Shown: piece after piece, positions 11,829 through 64,000 of the stretch
Layout of the letters: the number at the start of each line of letters is the position of its first letter
How positions within the stretch are numbered: the stretch's first letter is position 1
IMG/VR virus record: IMGVR_UViG_3300025913_000030
Location: 10,705-74,704 of that record
From: a virus
Length of the DNA: 64,000 nucleotides
Direction: 5' to 3' (one strand)
The notes under the pieces: generated by a model
The model's input: only the letters and a program-made list of their open reading frames with translations
Databases searched by the model: none
Told to the model about the DNA's origin: nothing
Position numbers and translations under genes: made by a program

Positions 11829-11866
11829 CTTATGACAAGACATTACTAGTAATCACTTGTCATAAG
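11829..11866. promoter_or_regulatory. AT-rich 38-bp palindrome
   Basis: CTTATGACAAG-AC-ATTACTAGTAAT-CA-CTTGTCATAAG. Confidence 0.6.
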
Positions 11867-11876
11867 GAGCACAGCG

Positions 11877-24865: not shown

Positions 24866-25444
24866 TCACCAGCGTGCGGGGTCGCCTGACGTGTTGCCCT
24901 CCCAGTGGTTCCACAGGAAGGTCTGCGCGTCGACATGGCAGAACGAGGCGCCCGCGTCCAGCATCGCGAGCCAGCAGCCCCAGTCGTCGTACTGCGATCC
25001 GGCCGGCCTCTGGAAGCCGCCGGCCTCGCGCATGAGTTCCGTGCGGGCCAGAGCGCTGGTGTGGATGTACGAACGCTGGCGCAGGATGTCCGCGTCGAAC
25101 GGGAGCCCGTAACGGTGCTCCGGCCCGGTCGGCGGGCCGCCGAGCTGCGGGACGAACGGCGTCGAGTAGACGACGTCGGCACCTGACTGCGCCTGCGCCT
25201 GGAAGAGTGTGACCAGGTGGTTCGGCAGCATCGTGTCATCGTCGTCGAGGAAGGTGACCCAGTGCGTGTCCACCCTGGCCAGTGCGCGGTTCTTGGTCGC
25301 CGCGGCGCCGGTCCGCGTGAAGTCGAACTCGACCGTGATCGCGTCCGGCTGCATGTCCTGCAGCGCGACCGAGGCCAGGGCGCGGGCGAGCAGCCGGGCG
25401 CGCGGCGGGATGCTCGTGACGCAGACCGTGATGCCAGGCCTCAC
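24866..25444 (-). CDS. Glycosyltransferase family 2
   Basis: TSIPPRA, GAAATKNRAL, WVTFLDDDD. Confidence 0.85.
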   Translation of the reverse strand: MRPGITVCVTSIPPRARLLARALASVALQDMQPDAITVEFDFTRTGAAATKNRALARVDTHWVTFLDDDDTMLPNHLVTLFQAQAQSGADVVYSTPFVPQLGGPPTGPEHRYGLPFDADILRQRSYIHTSALARTELMREAGGFQRPAGSQYDDWGCWLAMLDAGASFCHVDAQTFLWNHWEGNTSGDPARW

Positions 25445-26022
25445 CAGCGGTCGCTCCGCCCCGAGGTGTTCGCGCCGTGGTGGTTCCACACCCAGGTACG
25501 GCACGGCACGTGCATCACGGTGGCGCCCTGGGCGAGGCAGCCGAGCAGGAACCGCCGGTCCTCCCCCATCACGTCCCCAGGCCGCAGCGGCGCGGCCGGA
25601 TCGGTGAACCCGACCGACTTCGCCAGCTCGGTCCGGACCATAATCGTGATCGTCGTGTCCTGCGGATTGGCGGGATCGAACGGCTTGCCGAAGTGGCCGA
25701 GCGGGTCCTGCTCGCTCAGCTTGCCGTTCTGCTCCAGGTAGAAGTACGAGTAGACGTAGTCGGCTCCCGAGTCCCACGCCGCGTCGCGGAGCACCTGCAG
25801 GTGCTCGGGCAAGAGGCGGTCATCGTCGTCGAGGAATGCGACCCAGTCCGTAACCACGAGGTCCAGTGCCCTCTGCCGTGTTCGTGCGGCTCCTTCGCGG
25901 TCGAAGTCGATGGCCGTGGCGATGCACTCAGGTTTCAGGGTCTGGTTTTCCGCCGACTCGCAGGCCTGACGGAAGAGTTGCCTGCGCGGTGGGATCGTGG
26001 GGATGGCCACCGTGATGTTCAC
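25441..26022 (-). CDS. Glycosyltransferase family 2 (paralogue)
   Basis: IPTIPPR, GAARTRQRAL, WVAFLDDDD, GED. Confidence 0.85.
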   Translation of the reverse strand: MNITVAIPTIPPRRQLFRQACESAENQTLKPECIATAIDFDREGAARTRQRALDLVVTDWVAFLDDDDRLLPEHLQVLRDAAWDSGADYVYSYFYLEQNGKLSEQDPLGHFGKPFDPANPQDTTITIMVRTELAKSVGFTDPAAPLRPGDVMGEDRRFLLGCLAQGATVMHVPCRTWVWNHHGANTSGRSDRW

Positions 26023-26945
26023 GACGCGACCACCCCGGTCCAGCGTGTCGAGCGCAGCGCCTGTTCGATGCCTTGTTCGAGCGAGATCCGCGGCTGGTAG
26101 ACCTTGCGCAGCTTGGTCGTGTCCGCCACCCGGTAGCGCACCCCGACCGGCTTGGCCGGCAGGTGCTCGATCTGCGGCCGGTAGCCTCCCCCGACCTTGT
26201 CGATTACCATCTCGGCGAGCTGGTTGAACGAAGTCGGCCGCCCGGTGCCGATGTTCAGCCGGCCCTGCACACCTTGTCCGAGCATGGCGAAGACCGCGCC
26301 GACGACATCGTCGATGTGCACGAAGTCGCGCACCTGCTCGCCGTCGCCCCAGATCTCGAACGGATCGGCGCGCCGCGCCGCGCGGGCGATGAACGAGGGG
26401 AAGGGATAGTCCAGCGGCTGGTCCTCGCCGTAACCGGAGAACGGGCGCACGACGAAGACCCGGTGGCCTTTCTCCTGGGCGTGCCTGACGAGCCGTTCGC
26501 CGGTCAGTTTCGCCCAGCCGTACGTGGCATCCGGCTCGCCGAAGAACTGGTCCACGGGCTCGGCCATGTCCTCGGACAGGTCGATGCGGTAGCCGCTGTT
26601 CTGGGTGGCGACAGGGTAGGCGGCCGAGCTGGAGAAGTAGATCGCGTCCGGGACGTTCGCGAGTTCCAGCCAGCGGAAGAAGATCGAGTCCAGGGCGAGG
26701 TTGGTCGCCACGGCGAGTGGCGAGCCGTCGATCTCCTCGCGTCCCTTGACGTGCGCTGCGCAGTGCACCGCGAGGTCGACCGTGCCGCGCACGTGCTCGC
26801 TGGTCCAGGCCGGGTTACGCAGGACGTCGAGCATGTCGTGACCATTGGCTAGGTCAATGCCATGAACCGTGTGACCTTGCCTGCGGAATTCGTCGGCCAT
26901 GTGCCGACCAACGAACCCGGCGTGACCGGTGATCAGGACTCTCAT
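26019..26945 (-). CDS. NAD-dependent sugar epimerase/dehydratase
   Basis: MRVLITGHAGFVG, FSSSAAY, YGWAK, GDGEQVRDFVHIDD. Confidence 0.92.
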   Translation of the reverse strand: MRVLITGHAGFVGRHMADEFRRQGHTVHGIDLANGHDMLDVLRNPAWTSEHVRGTVDLAVHCAAHVKGREEIDGSPLAVATNLALDSIFFRWLELANVPDAIYFSSSAAYPVATQNSGYRIDLSEDMAEPVDQFFGEPDATYGWAKLTGERLVRHAQEKGHRVFVVRPFSGYGEDQPLDYPFPSFIARAARRADPFEIWGDGEQVRDFVHIDDVVGAVFAMLGQGVQGRLNIGTGRPTSFNQLAEMVIDKVGGGYRPQIEHLPAKPVGVRYRVADTTKLRKVYQPRISLEQGIEQALRSTRWTGVVAS

Positions 26946-27559
26946 CCGCGTACTCCCGTCAGGATCTGGAACATCCCGCGCAGCTCCTGCCGGACCACCC
27001 GGTATCCGCCCTGCTCGAGCAACGCGCGGTAGCCATCCGGATCCCAGGCCCAGGTGTGAAATTCGTAGGCGCTGCCCGGACGCTCGGTCCACGGGGAGGA
27101 GGCGACCAGGACCCTGCTCTGGACGAGGGACTTGACGAACCAGTGCGGGTCGATCAGGTGCTCGAGCATCTCGGTGCACACGGAGATGTCCCCGAACCGG
27201 ATCGGATGCATCGGGCCGTCCGGCTCCAGACGGAGCCAGCCCTCGACGACGTCACCCAGCGAGACACTGACACCGCGCTCGTTGCGGGCCGCGTCCACGT
27301 TCGTCTGCTGAAGGTCGTACCCCCACGCCGCGAGGCTCGGGTCGAGGATCGAGAGCAGTCCACCGTCGCCGGCTCCGAGGTCGGAGACTGTGGTCAGGCC
27401 GTAAGCCTCGGCGGCGAAGTGCACCTGGGCGGCAGCCTCGATCAGCCGCTCTCGGTGCGCGCCCTGCTCCAGGTGCGGCGCGCGGTCGCGGCCCGCGTAC
27501 CAGGACGGCTTCGTGTACTCGGGGACGGTGCCCTCGGGGAAGAGACGCCACTCGCCCAT
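26942..27559 (-). CDS. Class I SAM-dependent methyltransferase
   Basis: DLGAGDG, CTEMLEHLIDP. Confidence 0.85.
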   Translation of the reverse strand: MGEWRLFPEGTVPEYTKPSWYAGRDRAPHLEQGAHRERLIEAAAQVHFAAEAYGLTTVSDLGAGDGGLLSILDPSLAAWGYDLQQTNVDAARNERGVSVSLGDVVEGWLRLEPDGPMHPIRFGDISVCTEMLEHLIDPHWFVKSLVQSRVLVASSPWTERPGSAYEFHTWAWDPDGYRALLEQGGYRVVRQELRGMFQILTGVRG

Positions 27560-28248
27560 CAGCACAGCCCCGCCGTGTGCAGCTTCTCCAGCGCGGCCGG
27601 CAGCCCGGCCCGCTTGAACTCCTCGAACACCGCGCCGTCGCTCGCGTACTGCTCGGCGCTGTTGACTTCGGCGTACCGCTCGTCCATCGGCGCCTTGCCC
27701 GCGGTGGGGTGCAGGTGCTCGATCACGACGTTGGGCAGGTAGCGCAGCCTCCCCATGCCCTCCCCGAGCGCCTTCCAGGCGTCGTCGAGGTAGAGGTGCA
27801 CCATCCCGGGCGGGCACATCCACCCGAGCGCGGCCGGGATGTTCGAGGTCATGAACACCGCCGTGGGGAGCCGTTCGTGCTGCAGCAGGTCGTCGCCGTA
27901 AACGATGGCCGCGCCCATCCCGTCGAGGACCTTGCAGACCATCTCGTCCCAGCGCGGCGTGCGCGGGCGGTGGTCGTCGCCCATGAACCCGATCGCGTCG
28001 TAATCGGGGAAGCTCTCGGCCAGCCAGTTGAGCGTCGGTCCGAGCCGGCGGCGCGGGCCGACCACGTTGCTCGCCCAGGTGCCGTTCCACACGTCCAGGG
28101 CCAGGTACTCGGGCAGGGCCGGATCGTCCTCGTCGAGGGCGACGAGTAGATCGGCGTACCAGGAGAAGGTCTCCTGCCAGCTCTCGGCGAGCTGTGCGAT
28201 GTTGCCGGGCCGTCCCCGGGACGGGACGAAGACCACCATGGGGGCCAA
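27559..28248 (-). CDS. Glycosyltransferase (GT-A fold)
   Basis: VPSRGRP, FMGDDH, HLYLDD, IEHLHP; RBS AGGAG. Confidence 0.8.
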   Translation of the reverse strand: MAPMVVFVPSRGRPGNIAQLAESWQETFSWYADLLVALDEDDPALPEYLALDVWNGTWASNVVGPRRRLGPTLNWLAESFPDYDAIGFMGDDHRPRTPRWDEMVCKVLDGMGAAIVYGDDLLQHERLPTAVFMTSNIPAALGWMCPPGMVHLYLDDAWKALGEGMGRLRYLPNVVIEHLHPTAGKAPMDERYAEVNSAEQYASDGAVFEEFKRAGLPAALEKLHTAGLC

Positions 28249-28282
28249 AGGGATACTCCTCGCGTATCGGGGCGAAGCGAGC

Positions 28283-29320
28283 CTAGCTTGACCGATAGTC
28301 ACGCGGCCAGTAGGCGGCGCGCCAGCTGCCGAGGTGCCTGTCGATCGTGTAGTTGCGTGCGTGTTCACGCGCTGCCCTGCCCATGCGCTCGCGCAGGCCG
28401 TCGTCGGTGACCAGCTCGTGCAGGTAGCGCTCCCACTCGTGCTCGCGCCGCACGAGAAATCCGGTCTCCCCATGCTTGACGAAGTCCCGGTAGGCCGGCG
28501 AATCCGAGGCCACCACGGGGATTCCCATCGCCGCGTATTCCAGGGCCTTGAGATGCGACTTCGACCGGTTGAACGGGTGATCGCTCAACGGTGCGATGCC
28601 GACGTCGAAGCGCAGCATGCCGTAGTAGGCGGACGGGTTGGAGAAGATCGGCGTCCACGGGGCGAAGTCCGCGACCGGCGCGCGCACCAGGGCTTGGTGC
28701 TCCGTGCCCGTGTACCGCATGCGGATCTCGGGGTGACGGCTGAAGAACCTGCGCAGGTGCCGTGCTGCGACTTCGAAGTCGCCGAGATGGGTTGCCGACC
28801 CACCCCACCCGATCGTCAGCCGGTCCGTGACGGGAACCGGCAGGTCGAACACCGCCGGGTCGAGACAGTTCGGCACGATGTGCACGAGCGAGGGATCGGC
28901 GCCGTAGTCGGCGGCGCGCTGTGCCAGGTACGGGGTGGAGACGGTGATCGCGTCCGCGGAGCGCAGGTTGGCCAGGATGTTGGCGCGCCGCTGGTCGTTG
29001 TCGAAGTAGGCGCGCGCCTGCAGGTTCTTCTCGTCGATGCCGAGCAGGTCGTCATCGATCTCGTAGACGCGGCGCACCTGGCCGCGCAGGTTGCGCCAGA
29101 TCTCCGTGGGACCGGTGTGGCACGAGCGCTGCCCGACCACGACCTGGCCGGCGGTCAGTGTGCGCACGTCGAGCTTGTCGCTGTAGGAGACGTCCGCCTC
29201 TCCCGTTCGGGCGAGGGCGTCGAGCGGGACCTTGATCCGGTAGTAGCCGCAGCCCTGCCGATCTGCGAGCCAGCCGTGGATCCGGCCGCGGTGAAAAGGG
29301 GACGGATGACAAATAGTCAC
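28283..29320 (-). CDS. Glycosyltransferase (GT-B, family 4-like)
   Basis: GCGYYRI, YEIDDDL, IGWGGS, FNRSKSHLKALEY, PVVASD; exact start uncertain. Confidence 0.85.
   Translation of the reverse strand: MTICHPSPFHRGRIHGWLADRQGCGYYRIKVPLDALARTGEADVSYSDKLDVRTLTAGQVVVGQRSCHTGPTEIWRNLRGQVRRVYEIDDDLLGIDEKNLQARAYFDNDQRRANILANLRSADAITVSTPYLAQRAADYGADPSLVHIVPNCLDPAVFDLPVPVTDRLTIGWGGSATHLGDFEVAARHLRRFFSRHPEIRMRYTGTEHQALVRAPVADFAPWTPIFSNPSAYYGMLRFDVGIAPLSDHPFNRSKSHLKALEYAAMGIPVVASDSPAYRDFVKHGETGFLVRREHEWERYLHELVTDDGLRERMGRAAREHARNYTIDRHLGSWRAAYWPRDYRSS
28288..28302 (+). promoter_or_regulatory. Operator motif copy
   Basis: TTGACCGATAGTCAC. Confidence 0.6.
29306..29320 (+). promoter_or_regulatory. Operator motif copy at the glycosylation/lysis divergence
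   Basis: ATGACAAATAGTCAC. Confidence 0.6.
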
Positions 29321-33725: not shown

Positions 33726-35453
33726 TTACATCGAGCGGCGCGCCTCGTGCAGCAGCTCCTGCACGTTGTCGTCCGTGCGCGGCGAGCGCAGGAACCCGGA
33801 GACCAGCTGCGGCAGCGCCGCGTCGAATCCAGCCACCTGCAGCACACCCTGCTGCTTCGGGTCGGCGATCGAGTGGCCGGCCGCGGTCATCGACGCGACG
33901 ATGACGCGCGCCTGCGGATTCACCGACGAACGGTAGCCGTCCAGAGCCTGGCTCGGGTGCTGGTACCGGCCGGCCCACGTCTCGTTGTCCGTCAGCACCA
34001 GGAACCCGTCGACCGCGATCCGCTGGGAAGCGGCCCACTCGAACGGGAGTGACAGGTCCGTCCCGCCGCCGCTCGGCTGCCAGGACGCGATCTCGCGCAG
34101 GTTGGTGCGCGGCGTGACCCGCGACCTGCGCACGGCGGTGTCGACGTCGATGACGTGGACGTTGCCCTTCTCGATCCGGGACATCGCCGCCGCCATCCCG
34201 CACGCGATCTCGTACGGGGAGCCCAGGGGCGAGCCGCCGAGCACGACCCGGCCGCCGAAGCCGTTGGACATCGACCCGGACGAGTCGACCGCGACCAGCA
34301 GCCGCTTCCCCGAAGGCTCGACGTAGCCGAAGGAGAGCTCGTAGGCCTCCTCCAGCGCATCGGAGATCGCCGCGAGCGGTGTCCAGGTGCGCAGCGGCGC
34401 CTTCGGGTTGGGCTGCGCTGCCCCCGAGTTGTAGACCTTCAGGGCGAGGTAGACGTCGAGGGGGTGGATGCGCGCCTTCTTCAACGCCTCGCCGTCGGTC
34501 AGCCGGCGTACGACCGTCGAAACGGCCTCGCCTCCATAGGGCTTGAGAGCCGCGATCCTGGTCATCCGCGCGAGATTGCGGATCAGGGCCGTCATGCCGA
34601 CCGTCTCGGTCAGCGCTTCCCAGACCTCGGGCGAGTCGAGTACCGCGTCCGGCAGGAACTCCCACGGCACGCGCAGGGTCCGCACCGCGGTGACCGCCTC
34701 CTTCGGACCTGTGACCGCCTTGGCGATCCGGTACTTCTCCACGCTCGGCAGCACCAGGGCCGCCTGCTCGTCCGGAACGTTGCCCGCGAGCCAGCCGAAC
34801 AGGGCGTCGGTCGCCGGGTCCATCTTGATCAGCGATGGCTTCGCGAGGCGCAGCATGTCCCGCAGGGCGAAGGGCTCGCCGCTGCCGGTCTTGCGCGAGC
34901 GGGCCTTGCACGCCCGGAACGCGATGCGGTCCGCGTCGTCGGCCAAGAACCAGTCGGCCAGAGCGCCGCGCATCAGCCGGTTCATGACCGGCGCGATGCC
35001 CTTCCCCGAGGGCTTGCCCTTGAGGTTCTTGTAGTAGCCCCAGAAATGCGCGAAGTGGTCGGTGGTGCGCGCGATCGATGGCAGCGCACCACGCGCCGCG
35101 CGGCGCGCGTCCAGGTCGCCTCGGGCGAAGGCCGCGGCGAGGACGAAGAGGGCCGGGAAATTCTTCGGCGCGCGGCCGGCGGTGCTGACCTCGGTGGCCA
35201 GCTGGACCGCGCGGCAGCCATCAGCCCCGATCGCGTCGAAGACCACCTGCGCGTTGGCGAAGGTGTGCTCCTTCTCCCCGACGTAGTAGGTGCCGCCGGT
35301 CGTGCCGAGGATCAGGAAGTCCTCAAGCTTCGTCCAGAGGTCCTTGCCGAAGGTGAAGCCGCCCGCGTTGTTGCGGACCATCTCGGCCTGGCGGCCGGGG
35401 ATCGGCTCGGTCTGCGGCGTGCGCACGGTGCTGACCATGGACAGGGCGTCCAT
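33726..35453 (-). CDS. rsr: Ro60/TROVE-domain RNA-binding protein
   Basis: N-terminal TPQTEPIPG..VRNNAGGF..FLILGTTGGTYY; MTALIRNLARMT, ARIHP; vWA MIDAS DSSGSM, GGTD, LTDNETW, AGFD; RBS GAAAGGA. Confidence 0.95.
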   Translation of the reverse strand: MDALSMVSTVRTPQTEPIPGRQAEMVRNNAGGFTFGKDLWTKLEDFLILGTTGGTYYVGEKEHTFANAQVVFDAIGADGCRAVQLATEVSTAGRAPKNFPALFVLAAAFARGDLDARRAARGALPSIARTTDHFAHFWGYYKNLKGKPSGKGIAPVMNRLMRGALADWFLADDADRIAFRACKARSRKTGSGEPFALRDMLRLAKPSLIKMDPATDALFGWLAGNVPDEQAALVLPSVEKYRIAKAVTGPKEAVTAVRTLRVPWEFLPDAVLDSPEVWEALTETVGMTALIRNLARMTRIAALKPYGGEAVSTVVRRLTDGEALKKARIHPLDVYLALKVYNSGAAQPNPKAPLRTWTPLAAISDALEEAYELSFGYVEPSGKRLLVAVDSSGSMSNGFGGRVVLGGSPLGSPYEIACGMAAAMSRIEKGNVHVIDVDTAVRRSRVTPRTNLREIASWQPSGGGTDLSLPFEWAASQRIAVDGFLVLTDNETWAGRYQHPSQALDGYRSSVNPQARVIVASMTAAGHSIADPKQQGVLQVAGFDAALPQLVSGFLRSPRTDDNVQELLHEARRSM

Positions 35454-35498
35454 CGTGGTTTCCTTTCGAGGATTCAACACGGCCGGGGCCGGACGCGA

Positions 35499-35533
35499 AC
35501 CGGCCCGCACGAGGGGGTGTCGTGCGGGCCGGT
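35499..35533 (-). terminator. 14-bp hairpin between Y RNA array and Ro60 gene (terminator/attenuator)
   Basis: ACCGGCCCGCACGA-7nt-TCGTGCGGGCCGGT. Confidence 0.6.
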
Positions 35534-35538
35534 CAGGG

Positions 35539-35667
35539 GACGGATGCGGGAGTGACTACCGGGTTTAAGCGTCTTAGGCCGCTAGACAACCAATCCCGAG
35601 GGATTGGACGGGATTCGAACCCGCGTCTCTCCTTTGCAAGGGGTAACCGATAATCGTTCAACCCGTC
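35539..35667 (-). ncRNA. yrlA: Y RNA (YrlA-like), permuted tRNA module with Cys-like loop TTGCAAA
   Basis: GACGGGTTGAACG...; T arm GCGGG-TTCGAAT-CCCGT, closed acceptor hairpin CCAATCC-CTCG-GGATTGG, D arm GTCT..AGAC, terminal stem. Confidence 0.85.
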
Positions 35668-35680
35668 GGTGGTGCGAGGT

Positions 35681-35811
35681 GAGCGGATACGGAGGGCGGC
35701 CACCGGTGTTAAGTGCTCTGCCAATTGAGCTACGCACCCGAAGGTGCGACGGGACTTGAACCCGCAACCACTCTCTTAACAGGAGATAACCGACGGCCTT
35801 TCAACCCGCTC
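35681..35811 (-). ncRNA. yrlA: Y RNA (YrlA-like), permuted tRNA module with Asn-like loop CTGTTAA
   Basis: GAGCGGGTTGAAAG...; TCTC-CTGTTAA-GAGA, T arm, CGCACC-TTCG-GGTGCG, D arm GCTC-AATTGGCA-GAGC. Confidence 0.88.
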
Positions 35812-35843
35812 GATCGAGCCGTCAGGCTCGGCGATTCACGAGT

Positions 35844-35980
35844 GTCCGGATGCGGTGTCGACCACCGGGTTTTAGCGCTCTACCAGTTGAGCTACCCATA
35901 CGGATCTCTCCGTTTGGACGGGATTCGAACCCGCAACCTCTCGAACCAGAATCGATAACCGACGGTCATTCAACCCGGAC
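35844..35980 (-). ncRNA. yrlA: Y RNA (YrlA-like), permuted tRNA module with Gln-like loop TTCTGGT
   Basis: GTCCGGGTTGAATG...; TCGA-TTCTGGT-TCGA, T arm, acceptor hairpin with GAGA loop, D arm GCTC-AACTGGTA-GAGC. Confidence 0.88.
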
Positions 35981-36005
35981 CAGGCTCACTGTGTTCAGTT
36001 GTCAG

Positions 36006-36075
36006 CGGAGCAGATGCGCAAAGCTGGTCCCCGGAGTCATCAGCCAGATAACCGAGAGCCTTTCAACCCGCTCCG
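36006..36075 (-). ncRNA. Short Y RNA lacking the tRNA module
   Basis: Same 5' CGGGTTGAAAGG..TCGGTTATC and 3' GCATC motifs; terminal stem CGGAGC/GCTCCG. Confidence 0.72.
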
Positions 36076-36081
36076 AGAAAG

Positions 36082-36111
36082 ACAGTACAGGGCGACGTGA
36101 CTATCCGTCAA
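36082..36111 (-). promoter_or_regulatory. Promoter plus operator driving the Y RNA-Ro60 unit
   Basis: TTGACG-18-TACTGT containing GATAGTCAC; first Y RNA starts 6 nt after the -10. Confidence 0.78.
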
Positions 36112-36487: not shown

Positions 36488-36666
36488 CGCCCGCGCTTCC
36501 TTCCCTTGCGCTTGCCGCCGGCCCGGGTCACCGGGGCCCGCGACAGGTCGATGACGCTGTTCGTGTCGTACGTCCACGGCAGCCAATCGGAAATGGTGTG
36601 CGCGGCGAACTGACTCGGATCGCCTCGTTCGGCGACCAGCTGGTCATAGATCGGTGTCGTTGTCAT
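36484..36666 (-). CDS. Hypothetical protein
   Basis: TTPIYDQLVAERG; RBS GAGGAGG. Confidence 0.6.
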   Translation of the reverse strand: MTTTPIYDQLVAERGDPSQFAAHTISDWLPWTYDTNSVIDLSRAPVTRAGGKRKGRKRGR

Positions 36667-36919
36667 GGTTCTTCCTCCTCTCCTCGGCGTCGGGATACCG
36701 GCCGCGTACGCGCGCCGAGATCTCGTCCACCCGGTCCCAGTACTGCCGCGGCAGCGTGCACTTGTCGGCGCACCACGAGACCAGGGCGCAGACCAGGATG
36801 GCGGGGTCGGTGCGCACGACCCGGTGGTGCGTGGCGATGCTCTCGGGCAGGAACGCCTGGCGGACCGGCTTGTAGGCCTTGGCCAGCAGCGCGATCTGCT
36901 CCTCCAGGCTGCTGCTCAC
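36644..36919 (-). CDS. Hypothetical protein
   Basis: Coupled ORF. Confidence 0.55.
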   Translation of the reverse strand: MSSSLEEQIALLAKAYKPVRQAFLPESIATHHRVVRTDPAILVCALVSWCADKCTLPRQYWDRVDEISARVRGRYPDAEERRKNHDNDTDL

Positions 36920-37167
36920 GCGGCTTGCGGTTCGAAGGCCGCGGCCAGCAGCTTGTACCAGTGCTCGATCTGGTCCTTGACCGTGCGCTCCTCCAGCCAG
37001 CCGTCCTTGGCCCAGCTCGCGCGCAGGGCGTAGAGCTCCTTGGCGGTCGCCCACGTCTTGAGGCACTGGTTGTGGTTGTAGTTGGTGGTCGGCGGCTCGG
37101 TCACGAGCGCGTGCAGCGCGCGGTGCAGGGCCGTAGAGGTCTCCGTGCGCAGGTCGGGCAGCGTCAT
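36916..37167 (-). CDS. Hypothetical protein
   Basis: Coupled ORF. Confidence 0.55.
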   Translation of the reverse strand: MTLPDLRTETSTALHRALHALVTEPPTTNYNHNQCLKTWATAKELYALRASWAKDGWLEERTVKDQIEHWYKLLAAAFEPQAA

Positions 37168-37451
37168 CCGGCGTTCACCCACTTCCTCAGCTCGTCCGTG
37201 GTCAGGGCGAGCCTGGCCTCCAGGTCCTTGTTCTTGCGCTCCAGTTCGGCGCAGTTGGCGCACACCGCCGGCTTGCGCACCTGGTCGAGTCGGTAGGTGC
37301 GCGGGAAGGCATCGCCCTTCACCTGCACCTGGTACAGCTCCCGGCCGGAACCGAGCGAGTTGGCGGTCAGCACCACACCGGTCTTCCAACCGGTCAGTTG
37401 CTTGACCTCGACCTGTTCGCCCGGCCGGAATGTCGTGGCAGGCTTAGGCAC
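37164..37451 (-). CDS. Hypothetical KOW-like protein with coiled coil
   Basis: FRPGEQVEV...GVV; RBS AGGAGG. Confidence 0.55.
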   Translation of the reverse strand: MPKPATTFRPGEQVEVKQLTGWKTGVVLTANSLGSGRELYQVQVKGDAFPRTYRLDQVRKPAVCANCAELERKNKDLEARLALTTDELRKWVNAG

Positions 37452-37737
37452 CGCGCCTCCTGGGATCGCGCGTCATCTCGTCCAGCGTCAGCACGAAGCG
37501 CCCGGGCGGAGGGAAAACACCCGTCCGGAAACACAGCGCCACGGCGTGCGCGGCGTCATGCGCGCCCAGCCGTGCGAACGCCCGGCGCAGGTGCGACTTA
37601 ACCGTCAGGTTACTGATACCGACTCTGTTGCCAGTGTCCTCGTAGGTCAGTCCGTGTGCCTTGCACCAGAGCACTTGCACCTCACGGGACGTCAGCGGGC
37701 TGCCGTGCGGCGGCTTCGGCGCCTTGCTGTCGCTCAT
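37444..37737 (-). CDS. Stand-alone LuxR/NarL HTH protein, BldM C-domain-like
   Basis: LTSREVQVL..AHG..TVKSHLRRAFARLGAHDAAHAVALCFRTG. Confidence 0.85.
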   Translation of the reverse strand: MSDSKAPKPPHGSPLTSREVQVLWCKAHGLTYEDTGNRVGISNLTVKSHLRRAFARLGAHDAAHAVALCFRTGVFPPPGRFVLTLDEMTRDPRRRGA

Positions 37738-37964
37738 GCGGTCTCCCTCCAGTGGTCCCGGGCGAAGATGAGCTTCTCGGCCAGGGACGTCAGCCGCTCG
37801 AAATACACGGGGCTCACGGTCTCCAGGCCCGGCTGCTCGGGTAGGGAGGTGACCGAGGTCAGCCGCGCCGCGGCCAGGCCGCAGAGCAGGTCTACGTCGT
37901 CCCGGTCCAGTTCCCGGCTGCGTCGCTCGGCGATCCGGCGCAGCGTGCGTTCCCGTCGGCTCAT
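37734..37964 (-). CDS. Hypothetical protein
   Basis: Coupled ORF. Confidence 0.55.
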   Translation of the reverse strand: MSRRERTLRRIAERRSRELDRDDVDLLCGLAAARLTSVTSLPEQPGLETVSPVYFERLTSLAEKLIFARDHWRETA

Positions 37965-38335
37965 GCCAGAGCCTGTTCCAGCATCTGGCACAGCGCCTCG
38001 GACAGCGGACCGCCGCTGAACTCGTTGATCACGGTCAGCAGCCCCAGCGCCTCGTTGTTCAGCTGCGGGTCGCCGGGCAGCACCCAGCGCAGTACGTCCG
38101 GGTCGTTCAGGTTCCACTCCTCCCGCGGTGCGGGCGTGACACCAGTACCGCTGCGGACGGCGACCAGGCCCTTGGCCCGCAACTCGGCGAGCGCATCGCG
38201 CACGACGGTGCGGGAGACGGCGTACTGCTTCGCCAGGTCCTCGGTCGTCGTGGGGTTCGCCAGTTCGCCCGTGACAATGCGCGGGCCGAGGATGCCGGCC
38301 AGGGACTTGCCCATGGATCCTTGCGTCATGATCAT
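37961..38335 (-). CDS. Truncated GntR/FadR HTH regulator, WhiH-like
   Basis: IVTGEL..YAVSRTVVRDALAELRAKGLV..WNLNDPDVLRW; no full effector domain. Confidence 0.82.
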   Translation of the reverse strand: MIMTQGSMGKSLAGILGPRIVTGELANPTTTEDLAKQYAVSRTVVRDALAELRAKGLVAVRSGTGVTPAPREEWNLNDPDVLRWVLPGDPQLNNEALGLLTVINEFSGGPLSEALCQMLEQALA

Positions 38336-38841
38336 CGATAGGCTCCAGTCGTGATGCGGCAGCGGACCGCTTCCATGGCGCGCAGCTGCAGTTGTTTGGC
38401 CGCGCCGTCGCTGATGGCGAGCGCGGCCGAGGTCTCCTTGATCGACAGGTCACGCAGAAACCTCAGCTCCAGGCAGCGGCGCTGGTTGGGGACCAGGCCG
38501 CGCAGCGCCTGATTGACCGTGGTGCGGTACAGCGTCTGCTGGACCTGCTCCCACACGTCGGGGGCGACGCGGTCGGCGTCGTACATGTCTGCCGTGGGCA
38601 CTTCGCAGCGCACGCGCGCCGACTTCAGATGGTCGGCGAGCAGGTTGCGCGCGATCGTGACCAGCCACGCCTGCCTGCAGCTGCCGCGCTCGGTGTAGCT
38701 GTCCCAGCGGGCCAGGGCACGGGCGAAGGTCTCCGCCGTCAGATCCTCGGCGGTCTCGTGGTGGCGCAGCCGCTTGTAGAGGAACTGGAAGACGAACCGG
38801 TGACTCTCGCGGTAGGCCTGCTCGATCCCGTCAGCGTCCAC
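38332..38841 (-). CDS. ECF sigma factor, BldN-like
   Basis: TAEDLTAETFARAL, AWLVTIARNLLADHLKS, LRF..LSIKET..GAAKQLQLRA. Confidence 0.9.
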   Translation of the reverse strand: MDADGIEQAYRESHRFVFQFLYKRLRHHETAEDLTAETFARALARWDSYTERGSCRQAWLVTIARNLLADHLKSARVRCEVPTADMYDADRVAPDVWEQVQQTLYRTTVNQALRGLVPNQRRCLELRFLRDLSIKETSAALAISDGAAKQLQLRAMEAVRCRITTGAYR

Positions 38842-39082
38842 GGACCGACCTCGAGATCCGCACGAAGCGGGGCAGGGCGTACGCGGCGGCCACGGGAATG
38901 GCCAGGCCGGCGTAGATCAGCACGAGAGTGGCGCCGATCTGGGCCGACATCGTCCACTGGTGCACCATCCACTGCGCGGTCAACGTGCCGGCGACGAACA
39001 GGACCAGTCCAGTGGTGGCGAGAACGATGGCGGTGTCGGTCAGGTCCCGGAAGGTGCGAGAGCGCAGGATTCGGTGCAGCAT
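38831..39082 (-). CDS. Membrane protein (2 TM)
   Basis: Two hydrophobic helices. Confidence 0.6.
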   Translation of the reverse strand: MLHRILRSRTFRDLTDTAIVLATTGLVLFVAGTLTAQWMVHQWTMSAQIGATLVLIYAGLAIPVAAAYALPRFVRISRSVRGR

Positions 39083-39118
39083 GGATCCCCCATTACGCGG
39101 ATAAATCAGTACAGTCAG

Positions 39119-39148
39119 ATCGTACGATGGTGTGTGACTATCTGTCAA
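39119..39148 (-). promoter_or_regulatory. Promoter plus operator upstream of the sigma/regulator operon
   Basis: TTGACA-18-TACGAT containing GATAGTCAC. Confidence 0.8.
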
Positions 39149-39164: not shown

Positions 39165-39311
39165 TCAGTCATTTCGGTTGGGGAAGCAGCATTCGTCGAG
39201 CGTGCAGAAGAAACACGCCATGCAGCAACCGCACTCCGGGCAGAAGTCCTCACCGCAGACCGGCTCGCGCTCCTCGTCTTCCTGCGCGTCCTCGCCCGTC
39301 TCGCCGGTCAC
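39165..39311 (-). CDS. Cys-rich 48-aa microprotein
   Basis: GTGA-coupled; ..CGEDFCPECGCCMACFFCTLDECCFPNRND. Confidence 0.55.
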   Translation of the reverse strand: MTGETGEDAQEDEEREPVCGEDFCPECGCCMACFFCTLDECCFPNRND

Positions 39312-39898
39312 GGCGCGACGGGCGGATACAGGGCTGCGTACTCGTCCCAGATCCCGGCTTCCTTCAGCAGGGCGATGACGAGTTTCCCGGCCGGGGTGAC
39401 TCCGTAGAAGTCGGAGAAGGGCCGCTTATCCGTCCGGCTGCCGTCGTACCGGTGCCAGATCAGGCCGCGGCGCTCCAGACCCGGTGCACCCGTCGCGAAC
39501 ATCGACGGGCTTCTCACCCAGGTAACGGGATCCAGGCGGTGGCCGCCGGCCGCCTCCAGGCGCAGCACCCAGTCGATGTGCACGAGCGCCTCGATCAGGG
39601 TCTTGCCGAGGTCGAGACGGAACGCCGAGCCTGTCACATAGGCACGGAAGGCCTGGTTCACTGCGGGCGCCCGGGCGGGCTCGGTCGCGGCCAGTGCCTC
39701 GTCGCAGTCCGGACAGGGTGAGTGGTCCCGCTCGATGTGCTCGCGCGCCGCGTCCTCGACGATCCGGCGAATACCGGTCGTCGACCAGCAGTCCATGGTC
39801 GGGCCGGCGGTGCAGCGCGCCTCGTGCCAGTCGGTGCGGGCGCTCTCGATCTCCTGGATCTCGATGTGCTGGTCGAACTCACTCGTCAGCGTGGACAC
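39308..39898 (-). CDS. Hypothetical protein
   Basis: 196 aa; possible winged-helix C-domain (GLERRGLI..YGVTPAG). Confidence 0.6.
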   Translation of the reverse strand: MSTLTSEFDQHIEIQEIESARTDWHEARCTAGPTMDCWSTTGIRRIVEDAAREHIERDHSPCPDCDEALAATEPARAPAVNQAFRAYVTGSAFRLDLGKTLIEALVHIDWVLRLEAAGGHRLDPVTWVRSPSMFATGAPGLERRGLIWHRYDGSRTDKRPFSDFYGVTPAGKLVIALLKEAGIWDEYAALYPPVAP

Positions 39899-40223
39899 AG
39901 AGATCCTCCTTGCAGTCGGCGTGCCGCTCCAACACCTTCACAACGCCGCACGGCCAGGTGTCGCCTGGGTAGCCGCGGTGCGGGCAGCCGCCACACTCCA
40001 GCCACGCCTCGAGCCAGTGCAGAACAGGGAAGTGGCGATCGACCAGATCAGAGGAGAGGCAGTCGCCACGGGGCAGGATTTTCAAGCGCAGTGCCTGGTG
40101 CCGATCCTGGGCCATGGCCATGCGCTCAGTCCGGGCGGCAGCCAGCTGGAGAGCCTCCTGTGCCCGGTCTTCCTTGCGTTTCTGCCGGGCCGCGTACCGT
40201 TCAGCGGCTGTAAGACGTGTCAC
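39879..40223 (-). CDS. Hypothetical protein with Cys motifs
   Basis: CGGC..WPC. Confidence 0.55.
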   Translation of the reverse strand: MTRLTAAERYAARQKRKEDRAQEALQLAAARTERMAMAQDRHQALRLKILPRGDCLSSDLVDRHFPVLHWLEAWLECGGCPHRGYPGDTWPCGVVKVLERHADCKEDLCVHADE

Positions 40224-40406
40224 TGCCCCACCTCCGCGTCAGTACCGAAGACGAGCTCGTAGAGCGCGTCCGCGATGTGGTCGGTCTCCTCGGCAACTGC
40301 GAGTTCGAAGTCTGCGATTTTTTTTTTCCTCCCCGGCCCAACTGCACAGGCAGCGGGCCCGCACGGTGCCCTGGGAGGGGAGCAGGACGATATACGTCTC
40401 GTGCAT
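40220..40406 (-). pseudogene. Small gene frameshifted at an A10 homopolymer
   Basis: 187 nt (3n+1) from ATG to coupled TGA; A9 would restore the frame. Confidence 0.55.
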
Positions 40407-55308: not shown

Positions 55309-55622
55309 CCGAGTGCCTCCCGGACCGGCACCTCGTAGCAGGACGGGCAGACGGGCACCTGGACCGGGGGCGGCTGCTTACCGAACACCTTGCCCGAAGG
55401 AACCTCACGGAACAGTCCGTCGCCGCGCCAGCCCTCGCACTCGTGCGGCTCGTACACCGGGCAGTGGCAGCAGCACGCGGCATCGGCCGGGATCCTCGAC
55501 AGACCGATCTGGGCGGTGACCGCGGCTACTCGCTTGAGCGGTCCGGCCGCCGCCTCCAGGCTCTCGCGGAAGGCCTGTGCGTCAAAGGCCTTCGGCATCC
55601 GGTCGGGCTTCTCGTCAGTCAC
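55305..55622 (-). CDS. Cys-rich hypothetical protein
   Basis: CCCHC..HEC..CPSC. Confidence 0.6.
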   Translation of the reverse strand: MTDEKPDRMPKAFDAQAFRESLEAAAGPLKRVAAVTAQIGLSRIPADAACCCHCPVYEPHECEGWRGDGLFREVPSGKVFGKQPPPVQVPVCPSCYEVPVREALG

Positions 55623-55812
55623 CGCGCATGACCTCCTTCAGCCCCTCGGTCAACTCCTCGACCGCCGCCACGGTCTGGCCGACGGCCATGGCCAGCAACC
55701 CGCGCACCGGATCGGACTCGACGCCCGTCAGATGCAGCTGCGCGTACTCCAGAAGGTGCTGTTTCGCCCGGTCCAGATGTTCGCGCACCGTCATCAGGTC
55801 GTAGTACGCCAA
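55615..55812 (-). CDS. Hypothetical protein overlapping the integrase 3' extension
   Basis: RBS GGGAGGG, TTG start, good codon pattern. Confidence 0.55.
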   Translation of the reverse strand: MAYYDLMTVREHLDRAKQHLLEYAQLHLTGVESDPVRGLLAMAVGQTVAAVEELTEGLKEVMRGD

Positions 55813-56995
55813 TGTCCCTCCCCTGTTCTCTGTTCTTGCGCTCGAGCGCGTCACGCGCCGCGGCCAGGTCCTGCGGCCGGGCGTGCATGTAGTTGTCCGC
55901 CGTGAACGACGGGTTCGTGTGGCCCATCCACGCCGCGATCACCTGCGGCGCCACCCCGGCCCGCGACATCCGGCTGCCGGCCGCGTGCCGCATCGCCTCG
56001 TACGGCGTCACCTGCCGCACTCCGGCCGCGCGTATCAAGGCGTACATGTACCGGCGCAGGCTGGACGGCGTGAACGGGCGCCCGAGCTCGTCGCACAGCA
56101 CGTAGCCGCCGTCCTCGTACGCAGGCCCCACCTCGCGCCGCTCAGCCAGCTGGGCCAGGCGCCAGTCCTCCAGCATCTTGATCAGATCGTCGTCGAGCGG
56201 CAGGACGCGCTCCCCCGCCTGCGTCTTCGCCCGCTTCTCGACCGGCTTACCGGCCGCCAGCGTGCGGGCGTGCAAGCCGGTGTGCGCGGTCCTGGCGGCC
56301 GGATCGACGTCGGCCCACCGGATGCCGCACAGCTCCTCGGGCCGCAGGCCGCGGGCGAACAGCTCGATCACGGCAACCAGACGGTCTGATGCCGCGTGGG
56401 CGAAGAACTGCTCCTCCTCGGCGTCGCTCCAGAGCGAATGCTGCGGCTTGACCTGGGCCGGGCGCTCGACGAGGCGCACCGGGTTGTACGCGATGCGCTT
56501 CTCGGTCACCGCGATGTCCAGGGCCGCCTGCAGCCGGCCGAGTGTGAGCTGCACCGACCTCGGACCGTGGCCCTTGCCGTACCGGGACGAGGTCGACCGG
56601 GACCGCCCCTGCGTCAACATCCAATCGACGAACTCGTCGAAATCCTTCTTCTCCAGCTCCTGCAGCGGACGCTCGCCCATGTACACACGGGCCGGCTTGA
56701 GCGCGTCCTCGTAGCTGTACAGCGTCGCCGCCTCTTTCCCGCGCAGCCCCTTGAGGTACGCGTCCAGTTCGTCGCCCAGCGTCCGCGTCTTGTCCGGCTG
56801 GACGAAGGTGCCCGTCGCGCGCTCGTGCCGGATTCGGGCAAGCTCGTTCTTCGCTTCCTTCAGCTTCTCGAACGTGCCGGTGTACTGGCGGCGTTTTCCG
56901 GTAATCGGGTCGGTCCCGATGTCCACGACGAGGCGGTAGCGCTTCGTCTTGCCGTCCGCGAGCGTGATCCTGCGGATCGGTTCCTCCTTGGCCAC
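55619..56995 (-). CDS. int: Tyrosine integrase
   Basis: Arm-binding N-domain (DPITGKRRQ), GLRPEELCG, KT, MRH, MGH..TADNY. Confidence 0.92.
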   Translation of the reverse strand: MAKEEPIRRITLADGKTKRYRLVVDIGTDPITGKRRQYTGTFEKLKEAKNELARIRHERATGTFVQPDKTRTLGDELDAYLKGLRGKEAATLYSYEDALKPARVYMGERPLQELEKKDFDEFVDWMLTQGRSRSTSSRYGKGHGPRSVQLTLGRLQAALDIAVTEKRIAYNPVRLVERPAQVKPQHSLWSDAEEEQFFAHAASDRLVAVIELFARGLRPEELCGIRWADVDPAARTAHTGLHARTLAAGKPVEKRAKTQAGERVLPLDDDLIKMLEDWRLAQLAERREVGPAYEDGGYVLCDELGRPFTPSSLRRYMYALIRAAGVRQVTPYEAMRHAAGSRMSRAGVAPQVIAAWMGHTNPSFTADNYMHARPQDLAAARDALERKNREQGRDIGVLRPDDGARTSGPGETAPSGVRAAASDGRRVRSGARVAGHGRRPDRGGGRGVDRGAEGGHAR

Positions 56996-57596: not shown

Positions 57597-57640
57597 TTGA
57601 CTAATAGTCACATCATCGAGCCTGTGTGACTATCTGTCAA
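57597..57640 (-). promoter_or_regulatory. Inverted pair of operator motifs
   Basis: TTGACTAATAGTCAC (57597) and GTGACTATCTGTCAA (57626). Confidence 0.75.
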
Positions 57641-57999
57641 GCTCTCCCCGACAGCGCCCCGAACGCGGCGTCCAGGCTGCCGAACTGCGGCAGGACGCCG
57701 GACAAGCCCATCCTCCGCAGCTTGCAGGCGACGTTGTCACGGGGAGCGATCAGAACCATCCGGCCGCCACAGGAGACGGCCCGCCGCGCCGCACCGAGCA
57801 GCACGCCCACCCCGGTCTCGTCGAGGAACGTCAGGTCGCGCAGGTCGACGACGAGCCGGTAGCGGGCCGGAGACGCCAGTTCCTCGAACTCGGCGCGCAG
57901 CCTCGGAGCGGTGTGAGTGTCCAGATCCCCGGACACCACGACGACGGCGCGGCCGGCGTCGATCCATGACTCGACGTCGAGCGGTTTGAGCGCACCCAT
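57637..57999 (-). CDS. STAS anti-sigma-factor antagonist, BldG/RsbV-like
   Basis: VSGDLDTHTAPRLR..LVVDLRDLTFLDETGVGVL. Confidence 0.88.
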   Translation of the reverse strand: MGALKPLDVESWIDAGRAVVVVSGDLDTHTAPRLRAEFEELASPARYRLVVDLRDLTFLDETGVGVLLGAARRAVSCGGRMVLIAPRDNVACKLRRMGLSGVLPQFGSLDAAFGALSGRA

Positions 58000-58075: not shown

Positions 58076-58816
58076 ATGCCGCGCGCCGCGAAATACACCG
58101 AGATCGTCGACGAGCTGCGCGAACGGATCCTGGAAGGCGCCCTCGAACCGAACGAGCGGCTGCTCACGGTCGAGGAGCTGGCAGCCGGCCACGGCGTCGC
58201 CGTCGCGACCGCGGGAAAGGCGTACGCCGCACTGCAGGTCGAGGGACTGGTACGCGTCACACCGCGCGGCGTCTACGTCAGCGACGAGCACCAGCTCACG
58301 CTCGTCGGACTAGACCGGCTCTCACGCGTCCGGCGCAACCTGCCGTACCTGGTGGAGGGCGAGAGCGCGTTCGTGAACTCGGCCGAGGTCGTCATCCCGC
58401 CGGCTTACGTGGCGGACCTCTTCGACCTCGACCCGTCCTCGGCCCGCGCACTGCGCCGCGAATACGTCGTCGGACGCAGCGTCAAGCGCCTGATGCTGGT
58501 GGTCGACTGGTACCCGGCCGAGGCCGCGGTGCTCGCCCCGAGCCTGGCCAAAACCACCCCGTCGACCGTCAACCACGCGACCGCGCTGTACCTGAAGGCG
58601 TCCGGTCGCACCATCACCTCGGCCCGCGACGACATGCACGCGCGGCGCGCCTCGGCCCGGGAAGCCGGCCAGCTGTTCGTCGCGGCCGGCGCCCCGGTGA
58701 TGGGGCATGTCTCGCGCTGGTGGGACGAGGACGGCGTCATCGTCTACTCCGAGGCGGTGTTACCCGAGAACGAGGTCATCGGGTACCGGACCCTTCCTCC
58801 TTCGGACCTGGAATAA
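58076..58816 (+). CDS. GntR/HutC (UTRA) regulator, KorSA-like
   Basis: KYTEIVDELRERILEG..L..EGLV wHTH; ARRASAREA UTRA-like C-domain. Confidence 0.82.
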   Translation: MPRAAKYTEIVDELRERILEGALEPNERLLTVEELAAGHGVAVATAGKAYAALQVEGLVRVTPRGVYVSDEHQLTLVGLDRLSRVRRNLPYLVEGESAFVNSAEVVIPPAYVADLFDLDPSSARALRREYVVGRSVKRLMLVVDWYPAEAAVLAPSLAKTTPSTVNHATALYLKASGRTITSARDDMHARRASAREAGQLFVAAGAPVMGHVSRWWDEDGVIVYSEAVLPENEVIGYRTLPPSDLE

Positions 58817-63334: not shown

Positions 63335-64000
63335 CGCAGATCGGCGGCTTCCGCTTCCTTCACCGGCTCACCGTCGATGTCAACCTCTCGGCAGCCGGGT
63401 TCGACGACGCGACGTACCTTGACCTTCTGCTGGTCAATGACGCTGATCTCGTCCACGCGCACCGGACACGCCATGAACTTCGTCGCGTCCGTGTGGTACG
63501 CCAGGGCGTGTACGGGAGTCGGGCCGAAGTGCAGTCCCTTGCCGCAGTTGTTGTCGGGTCGCCAGTCCGGCGCCTCGGGCGTCGCACCGGGCGAGTAGTC
63601 GAACCCGTAGTCGGTGGTATAGGCGTCGTTCACGGCCTTGTACAGCGTGACGATTCCGTTCTCGTCCGGCTCCACGCCGTGGTACGAGAGCCAGGTCGCG
63701 GCGTCAGCGCCTGTCAGATTCGGCGGCTCGATGACATGGCACTTACCCGAAACCGTCACCGCGCGGTTCAACTTGTGCACCGCGACATACTGCGAGGCGG
63801 TGACGCTCGCGCTGCCCGAGGCGCGGACGCTCGCGCTGCCCGAGGCGCGGACGCTCGCGGTGTCCCAGGCGGTGACGCTCGCGGTGTCCCAGGCGGTGAC
63901 GCTCGCGCTGCCCGAGGCGGTGACGCTCGCGCTGCCCGAGGCGCGGACGCTCGCGGTGTCCCAGGCGGTGACGCTCGCGCTGCCCGAGGCGGTGACGCTC
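63331..64000 (-). CDS. Repeat-containing protein (5' end beyond window)
   Basis: Open frame through the repeat into LYKAV..CGKGLHF domain. Confidence 0.75.
   Translation of the reverse strand, partial: SVTASGSASVTAWDTASVRASGSASVTASGSASVTAWDTASVTAWDTASVRASGSASVRASGSASVTASQYVAVHKLNRAVTVSGKCHVIEPPNLTGADAATWLSYHGVEPDENGIVTLYKAVNDAYTTDYGFDYSPGATPEAPDWRPDNNCGKGLHFGPTPVHALAYHTDATKFMACPVRVDEISVIDQQKVKVRRVVEPGCREVDIDGEPVKEAEAADLR
63794..64000 (-). repeat. 24-bp coding tandem repeat (more than 8 units)
   Basis: GAGGCGGTGACGCTCGCGCTGCCC variants encoding (S/T)ASV(T/R)A(SG/WD). Confidence 0.92.

Follow-up and report, generated by a model that had tools for sequence, protein, structure and literature searches.

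A conserved cassette of signal-blind transcription regulators in a temperate actinophage lineage

The Phage and the Genes of the Cassette

A group of small, co-oriented genes for transcription regulators, read from one promoter on the minus strand, lies in a 64,000-nucleotide stretch of virus DNA (IMG/VR record IMGVR_UViG_3300025913_000030), which we will refer to as the window. It covers bases 10705–74704 of a complete 74,704-bp record that has direct terminal repeats; its G+C content is ~68%, and matching DNA has been seen in rhizosphere and soil metagenomes. The plus-strand arm includes the genes for portal, major head protein and tape measure, and the minus-strand arm those for helicase, exonuclease, primase/polymerase and DNA polymerase. 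With a tyrosine integrase (55619–56995, minus strand) adjoined by a Xis-like HTH_17 gene, the phage is temperate and siphovirus-like. Its portal protein is 32–39% identical to those of Streptomyces phages and is also matched by Arthrobacter phages; the host is an actinobacterium. At the DNA level, the cassette region found no match among GenBank phages.

The features of the cassette are listed in Table 1. Its central proteins are a sigma factor of the extracytoplasmic function (ECF) type, a shortened GntR-family protein and a stand-alone LuxR/GerE helix-turn-helix (HTH) protein. The GTG start of the sigma gene overlaps the stop codon (TGA, 38833–38831) of the gene for a protein with two transmembrane stretches (2-TM), and since such junctions overlap (ATGA, GTG...TGA) the genes are translationally coupled. 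Pfam and other family searches gave no match for the 2-TM protein or p95, and p83 had no family match either. The original prediction, made from the letters of the window, had described an ECF sigma, a GntR reduced to its DNA-binding part and a LuxR HTH lacking a receiver behind one operator-controlled promoter. The three peptides that it quoted do lie in open reading frames at the places given, Pfam agrees on both reduced proteins, and the wording on the promoter is a fair description, given the promoter scan and the operator at the -35 element. Its end coordinate, a TTG at 39148, falls inside the promoter and is not a true start, the first gene beginning with the ATG at 39082; its gene content was also incomplete, as it missed the s76 frame (37964–37734) and, downstream, p95 and p83.

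Table 1. Features of the regulator cassette (window coordinates).
Feature	Position	Strand	Description
Promoter TTGACA-18-TACGAT	39119..39148	-	sigma-70 (HrdB)-type; consensus scan, 10/12 positions matching
2-TM protein, 83 aa, first gene	38831..39082	-	two hydrophobic, probably transmembrane stretches; ATG 39082 after GGGGGAT
ECF sigma, 169 aa	38332..38841	-	sigma-2 and sigma-4; BldN family in the wide sense
GntR-family protein, 124 aa	37961..38335	-	winged HTH, linker, about two helices; no FCD
s76, 76 aa, basic helical	37734..37964	-	between GntR and LuxR genes; ATGA overlap at both ends
Stand-alone LuxR/GerE HTH, 97 aa	37444..37737	-	no receiver domain
p95, 95 aa	37164..37451	-	8-nt overlap with LuxR gene; conserved in cassette
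p83, 83 aa	36916..37167	-	ATGA-coupled to p95; conserved in cassette

The promoter scan returned two sites against 0.3 expected. The -35 hexamer of the cassette promoter is the left arm of a 15-bp operator, TTGACAGATAGTCAC (39148–39134), with the palindromic core TGAC-N5-GTCA. Minor variants included, this operator occurs at ~18 promoter-like sites genome-wide in a uniform arrangement, TTGAC(A/G)GATAGTCAC followed 8–9 nt on by TAnnnT. Window positions 99, 127, 383, 28288, 30894, 31257, 31291, 36111, 39148 (the cassette), 45144, 54318, 57019, 57597 and 57640 are among these sites, and in a related phage (G206) the 15-mer is identical and stands ahead of the same operons, the cassette included.

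Several observations touch on this layout. Just upstream of the cassette promoter, 39165–39311 (minus strand) encodes a 48-aa acidic protein with nine cysteines (..CGEDFCPECGCCMACFFCTLDECC..), 57% identical in a related phage. A full-length HutC-type GntR (GntR plus UTRA domains; 77% nucleotide identity in a related phage) is encoded at 58076–58816 (plus strand), beside divergent copies of the TTGACnnATAGTCAC motif that stand back to back at 57597 (plus) and 57640 (minus). Because it adjoins these paired copies and is well conserved, it is to be preferred over the cassette proteins as a candidate binder of the genome-wide operator, and is possibly the prophage repressor. Metatranscriptome (Logan) contigs from one RNA library (X5) of a single study comprise pieces of 36654–39092 and none in 39180–40385, a coverage compatible with a transcript start at the promoter; DNA carry-over is possible, and they were therefore not counted as evidence.

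Conservation and Synteny

At least four other contigs, from phages or metagenomes, share the cassette in synteny, at 37–96% identity. The shared order runs from a 196-aa protein and the Cys-rich 48-aa protein through the promoter to the genes for the membrane protein, sigma, truncated GntR, s76, LuxR, p95 and p83, after which comes an operon of Y RNAs and Ro60. In G206 (IMGVR_UViG_3300045003_000166, 72.6 kb; its cassette locus is L207), the identities are 37% for the membrane protein, 37% for sigma, 46% for GntR, 63% for s76, 50% for LuxR and 74% for Ro60; in L257 (IMGVR_UViG_3300045836_000287) they reach 54% for sigma, 71% for GntR, 79% for s76 and 62% for LuxR. The other two are metagenome contigs, whose proteins are 87–96% (L173) and 53–70% (L174) identical to those of the window. 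The membrane protein lies directly upstream of sigma in both L207 and L257 (37–65% identity), p95 keeps its position in L173, L207 and L257 (38–95%), and p83 does so in the relatives (48–91%). Its gene content, its family kinship, the lack of sensor parts, and its conservation and synteny mark the operon as an accessory cassette of signal-blind regulators of transcription, conserved in a temperate actinophage lineage.

The window phage and G206 are collinear at 64–84% nucleotide identity; the cassette is the least conserved of the aligned stretches (64%, against 70–84% elsewhere), and its sigma and membrane protein genes do not align at the DNA level. Such fast divergence behind an identical promoter and operator is more in keeping with genes at the interface with the host than with proteins that bind conserved phage DNA.

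The best-conserved protein of the cassette is s76 (63–96% identity), for which a model with three helices is predicted (predicted local distance difference test score, pLDDT, 79). It matched no family, a Foldseek search of the PDB gave nothing below E = 2, and the ESM Atlas returned generic helical hairpins only. As a candidate anti-sigma factor resembling RsbN, the cognate partner of BldN, s76 was rejected (hhalign probability 0.4%). The 2-TM protein has no similarity to RsbN and exposes only ~16 N-terminal residues to the cytoplasm.

The ECF Sigma Factor

The phage sigma matches Pfam Sigma70_r2 (1.1e-13) and Sigma70_r4 (1.1e-10), and several independent comparisons point to BldN. Its best NCBIfam model is that of the BldN family (TIGR02952), at 114.2 bits, below the curated cut-off of 206.45; its best PDB match is chain A of 6dxo, the Streptomyces venezuelae sigma-BldN in complex with RsbN (87 bits, the next being SigL with 42). 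With the phage protein as query, BldN scored 122.5 bits against 39.6 for the next ECF sigma in a complete Streptomyces genome (G001), and 115.5 against 38.7 in a Micromonospora genome (G003). The closest cellular proteins, ~50% identical, are 226–263 aa long; they have the BldN-typical extension at the N-terminus and reach 185–205 bits with TIGR02952.

Like sigma-BldN, the phage protein is a two-domain ECF sigma, and the two are ~42–46% identical over the whole core, sharing AWLVTIARNL.ADH.KS and, in the sigma-4 recognition helix, the BldN-like pattern GA.K.LQ.RA. BldN is produced as a proprotein; the phage factor, unlike it, is phage-encoded, has no rsbN-like neighbour, and has no pro-sequence, as it begins at the sigma-2 core. 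RsbN contacts (PMC6101532) were mapped on the 6dxo alignment: seven of these positions are kept, and five are changed non-conservatively (D20R, S23H, L119N, T134E and Y162L), D20R being a charge reversal at the salt-bridge residue Asp20. Judged by its sequence, the protein is a BldN-family sigma in the wide sense, belonging to a phage/prophage group, and not a BldN orthologue.

Among sigmas from GenBank phage records none exceeded 33% identity (Streptomyces phage Gilgamesh, 30%). Some 25 predicted viral or proviral contigs (L258–L280 and L292) carry BldN-like sigmas without GntR and LuxR partners. Part of these sigmas branch outside the cellular BldN clade and seem truly to belong to phages; others are 65–71% identical to Streptomyces BldN or nested within the cellular BldN proteins, and these may be host DNA included in prophage calls.

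The LuxR and GntR Proteins

Pfam GerE covers residues 14–67 of the 97 of the LuxR protein. Its close relatives are small proteins only (93–151 aa), and a conserved C-terminal tail, FPPPGRFVLTLDEMxRxPRRRG, is specific to this phage family. The top match in Streptomyces G001 (51 bits, 50% identity over 62 residues) is a 203-aa response regulator, identified as BldM because it ends in LGASDRAHAVALGFRWGLVR and adjoins a WhiD-type Wbl gene; the second (46 bits), an open frame of 253 residues whose N-terminal part resembles a receiver, lies ~230 kb beyond whiH and is taken to be WhiI by architecture and position only. BldM was also the top match to the single-sequence query in G002, G003 and G004, and the top LuxR match in all Streptomyces and Kitasatospora genomes tried. 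Across 201 Actinomycetes genomes, six of the nine best LuxR matches were BldM orthologues and two were of the WhiI-like type; one BldM-type match is locus L167 of G019, on which no conclusion rests. With a profile of the phage family, BldM scored 58.2, 57.2 and 60.1 bits in three genomes, against 51.1, 50.3 and 57.5 for the runners-up. This ranking is not a consensus bias, since the generic Pfam GerE model places BldM 16th in G001 (the WhiI-like gene falls outside its top 24). A representative search with the phage LuxR was swamped by multi-repeat proteins and was useful only for finding small stand-alone relatives; among GenBank phages no LuxR match was found.

The phage LuxR shares with BldM and WhiI the four-helix LuxR/GerE DNA-binding domain, with TVK(S/T)H in its recognition helix and AHAVAL.FR.G in the final one. 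It differs from both in lacking a receiver, in its extra tail and in belonging to a clade of its own, made of stand-alone proteins of 90–150 aa. In a tree constrained to join it with the WhiI-like group, the fit was as good as in the free tree (approximately unbiased test, AU, p = 0.54). Pairwise and profile scores give weak to moderate support for a BldM/WhiI-like DNA-binding domain, a putative member of that group. GerE of Bacillus subtilis (74 aa) is likewise a stand-alone LuxR HTH without sensor, and the phage LuxR is encoded beside an alternative sigma; no specific sequence kinship links the two beyond the Pfam family. GerE acts with sigma-K RNA polymerase and is a cellular protein with a mother-cell role late in sporulation.

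In the GntR protein, the Pfam match covers residues 31–66 only, and neither FCD nor UTRA is present. The length is 122–124 aa in every phage copy of a five-member alignment, which makes the truncation a stable feature rather than a sign of decay; with the FCD domain cut after about two helices, the protein cannot bind an effector. A search for longer homologues gave three weak FCD-type matches only. Its best single-sequence match in Streptomyces, recognised as WhiH because it lies beside hrdB and carries SDWNLLDPDIIEW, scored 58.7 bits against 56.1 for a 240-aa paralogue, and with the family profile WhiH reached 70.6–70.9 bits against 63–67 for the runner-up. This is not a consensus bias, since the generic GntR hidden Markov model does not list WhiH; still, no more than two genes in each genome exceed ~36 bits, and WhiH would therefore come first in about half of the cases anyway. 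Across the 201 genomes, several non-WhiH regulators score equally high or higher. The best PDB match is Escherichia coli DgoR (7c7e), which has the same linker motif, WNLxDPDV being found in DgoR and throughout the subfamily. With DgoR, WhiH and unnamed metabolic regulators, the phage protein shares the winged HTH and the W-N-L-L-D-P-D-V linker (41–49% identity over ~85 residues); it differs from them in its truncation, and from WhiH in its place in the tree, among regulators encoded next to sugar, ABC-transporter or hydrolase genes. Forcing the phage GntRs and WhiH together is 11.9 log-likelihood (lnL) units worse (p-AU 0.084), disfavoured and not formally rejected. The protein belongs to the FCD (FadR-subfamily) group that includes WhiH, and the comparisons do not support a specific WhiH relationship.

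The original prediction had likened the three proteins to BldN, BldM and WhiH, and the host peptides that it gave are accurate: AWLVTIARNLVADHFKS of BldN (6dxo; L208), LGASDRAHAVALGFRWG of BldM (L124) and WNLLDPD of WhiH (L133). The likeness to BldN holds at the family level, with BldN the best match by a wide margin in genomes, PDB and NCBIfam, and fails as orthology on the cut-off, the missing pro-sequence and the tree. For the LuxR, BldM did come out as the best match free of consensus bias; the margins over the runner-up are small (3–7 bits) and the trees do not join the two. As to WhiH, the resemblance is limited to its being the best match within Streptomyces: the motif on which it was based is subfamily-wide, and the tree groups the phage proteins with metabolic FCD-type GntRs, not specifically with WhiH.

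Target Sites on Phage DNA

The BldN-dependent bldM promoter was re-derived as CGTAAC-N16-CGTTGA from six bldM upstream regions of six genomes. The phage contains none (0.3 expected), with no excess of relaxed forms, and across 36 viral loci with BldN-like sigmas BldN-type promoters are not above chance, unrelated AT-rich phages excepted. BldM boxes (TCACcCgnncGgGTGA, taken from PMC4125116), with up to three mismatches, number four in the window against 8.4 expected. An unbiased genome-wide search for bipartite motifs (5–6 nt + N15–18 + 4–5 nt, composition-corrected enrichment) gave no ECF-like promoter class. As a positive control, the AT-rich jumbo-phage contigs L287 and L288 carry GTAACC-N16-ACGTTA repeats near an ECF-like sigma gene, these ECF-type sites standing at about 2500–2900 and 8050.

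The ~25-kb operon from portal to tail has no operator-type promoter on its strand, and no good sigma-70 promoter was found in the region upstream of the portal gene (384–465, plus strand; the gene starts at 466). This region shares three blocks with G206, namely ACCGGT, T(G/T)ATCGCC and, 16 nt on, TCGCTACC; ATCGCC-N16-TCGCTACC is kept in G206 and the 16-nt spacer has diverged. In the window the region also contains a triple CATGTCC repeat, and neither these repeats nor TATGACAA near the portal gene recur elsewhere. We consider 384–465 a single candidate for a non-HrdB late promoter or an activator site, seen in two phages.

Possible Roles of the Cassette

A host-directed role, with the regulators acting on the developmental or envelope programme of the host, is a tentative reading that could well be right, and a role on the phage's own DNA is about equally likely. 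Under the host-directed reading, transcription would start at one of the uniform HrdB-type promoters of the phage, whose operator would probably keep the cassette silent in the lysogen and on in lytic growth. The products would be a pro-sequence-free BldN-family sigma without recognisable cognate anti-sigma, a GntR free of its ligand domain and a receiver-free LuxR of BldM/WhiI type, together with two small proteins, one helical and one of the membrane. The sigma could bind host core RNA polymerase and direct it to host BldN-type or related ECF promoters, and LuxR and GntR would occupy the sites of those host regulators to which they are most similar (BldM/WhiI, and the FCD subfamily to which WhiH belongs, respectively), behaving there as constitutive activators or as competitors. 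The developmental or envelope programme of the infected mycelium would in this way be uncoupled from its normal signals. We infer when the cassette is expressed, what it targets and which way its effect goes, which could be the forcing or the blocking of development.

BldN activates bldM, and the cassette links two genes akin to consecutive steps of one cascade, every sensor part having been removed; these features favour a host-directed role, as do the lack of matching BldN or BldM sites on the phage and the presence of a STAS protein elsewhere in the same genome. BldM forms homo- and heterodimers and pairs with WhiI (PMC4125116). Streptomyces development contains the spread of phages, and bldN mutants give larger, non-shrinking plaques (PMC10117723). 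Phage sigma factors are known to alter sporulation in Bacillus (Schwartz, Lehmkuhl and Lennon; bioRxiv 10.1101/2021.11.12.468384 / PMC9429907), and actinophages carry WhiB and Lsr2 homologues (PMC8612146). The cassette resembles these cases in that a phage copy of a host developmental regulator could re-wire differentiation. It differs from the Bacillus phage sporulation sigmas in its ECF BldN-type class, in the host phylum, and in uniting the sigma in one operon with two domain-truncated regulators.

In its strongest form, which we consider rather unlikely, this reading makes of the three regulators a developmental hijack cassette that takes over the BldN to BldM/WhiI branch of the cascade for aerial growth and sporulation in a sporulating actinomycete, either stopping plaque containment or driving the lysogen into spores. 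In such a hijack, the BldN-type sigma would ignore host anti-sigma control and would act together with the receiver-less BldM/WhiI-type LuxR and the ligand-blind GntR. A number of results weigh against the host-directed reading. Rather than being nested among cellular BldN proteins, the cassette sigmas branch outside that clade and group with prophage sigmas without partner genes, their tree neighbours being prophage-like IMG/VR contigs (L143, L261/270/272, L264/266/269 and L268/271); these are quick trees with long branches, and they suggest that the phage sigma is not a recent capture. Its promoter specificity may differ from that of BldN, the sigma-2 loop that reads the -10 element being unlike BldN's and variable among phage sigmas, and BldN-family sigmas also occur in non-sporulating actinobacteria (Modestobacter, Terrabacter). 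The LuxR trees, built on a ~70-residue domain, are star-like with the phage proteins in their own clade, and a constraint with BldM costs 8 lnL units (AU p = 0.29). A careful tree joins four phage GntRs to L235, L236 and L137 (support 98/93), ordinary FCD regulators of ~220 aa beside sugar, ABC-transporter or hydrolase genes. The DNA comes from soil and rhizosphere metagenomes, and the portal is only distantly related to those of Streptomyces phages (see above). Furthermore, the phage would gain by blocking development, and an added sigma does not obviously block it.

A serious contender, though one that falls short of being probable, is that the cassette is the phage's own middle/late switch: the sigma would redirect host RNA polymerase to phage promoters unread by HrdB, above all that of the ~25-kb portal-to-tail operon, and LuxR (as GerE with sigma-K in Bacillus) and the truncated GntR would be co-activators or shut-off factors on phage DNA, the kinship to BldN and BldM reflecting the ancestry of the parts only. 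Most known phage sigma factors do drive phage genes. All of the ~18 operator-type promoters are sigma-70-like and none faces the portal-to-tail operon, which, as described above, is preceded by no good sigma-70 promoter and by ATCGCC-N16-TCGCTACC, conserved in the related phage across a diverged spacer; set against this, that candidate is one site, no ECF-like or bipartite motif is repeated genome-wide, and the site is kept between two phages whose sigmas share only 37% identity and differ in their DNA-reading segments. In about a dozen other prophage contigs, a BldN-like sigma also stands alone in the early region, the phage sigmas' place outside the clade of cellular BldN proteins favours a phage-directed role, PHROGs assigns both the sigma and the LuxR to phage "sigma factor" families, and the AT-rich L287 and L288 demonstrate that ECF-type promoters can be repeated near a phage's own sigma gene. 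The cassette is, however, the most divergent syntenic region, which is less expected of a switch acting on conserved phage DNA.

Two further explanations appear improbable. LuxR and the truncated GntR might act mainly by protein contact and not on DNA, the LuxR poisoning BldM/WhiI-type dimers through its last helix (AHAVAL.FR.G), and s76 or the membrane protein serving as an unconventional anti-sigma for the phage or the host sigma. The last, dimerisation helix is indeed the part most alike between the phage LuxR and BldM, which works via homo- and heterodimers (PMC4125116). ECF sigma genes normally share a transcript with an anti-sigma gene, and two small family-less proteins adjoin the phage sigma, one of which (s76) is predicted to have three helices, as has RsbN's anti-sigma domain (PMC6101532); nonetheless, s76 shows neither profile similarity to RsbN nor a fold match, and the membrane protein offers hardly any cytoplasmic part for such a role. 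There is a similarly small chance that the cassette serves lysogenic conversion: expressed from the prophage, it would change an envelope or stress regulon of the lysogen (a function of ECF type), to the advantage of both host and prophage and with no relation to development. The phage is temperate, its cassette has its own promoter, and other moron-like genes are present (glycosyltransferases, sugar epimerase, Ro60 with Y RNAs). That promoter carries, however, the same operator as the lytic promoters of replication and Ro60, and the cassette is therefore probably repressed together with them; besides, there is no terminator-bounded moron structure, and the cassette genes are coupled to neighbouring phage genes.

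Phage sigma factors are already known, and so are phage copies of developmental regulators (WhiB, Lsr2 and the Bacillus sporulation sigmas). Our literature searches found no report of a BldN-family sigma in phages, or of one that shares an operon with sensor-less LuxR and GntR domains. Should the cassette act on the host, it would provide a direct molecular handle on how phages counter developmental containment in Streptomyces, together with naturally constitutive forms of BldN- and BldM-type regulators; should it act on the phage, it would represent a new system of late-gene control in a group of uncultured soil actinophages. Either way, the dozen or so prophage sigmas that branch outside cellular BldN are relevant to how BldN itself arose in evolution.

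Other Features of the Phage Genome

A STAS-domain protein of the anti-anti-sigma type (120 aa; Pfam STAS 1.5e-15) is encoded at 57637–57999 (minus strand); its best Streptomyces match (62.8 bits, 37% identity) is not established as BldG. The Ro60 gene (TROVE and vWA domains; 33726–36111, minus strand), 74–81% identical in related phages, has its own operator-type promoter, a non-coding array upstream and a tRNA-Met downstream; Rfam at the gathering threshold reported the two tRNAs and nothing else. At least ten tandem copies of a 24-bp unit lie in the direct terminal repeat (window 63807–64000 plus genome bases 1–250). A near-perfect inverted repeat, CTTATGACAAG ... CTTGTCATAAG, occupies a short intergenic gap of the structural operon (11818–11876, plus strand), immediately 5' of a ribosome-binding site. 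Between the tail genes and the lysogeny region, 25441–29320 (minus strand) encodes two glycosyltransferases and a nucleotide-sugar epimerase, which look like morons or cell-surface modification genes.

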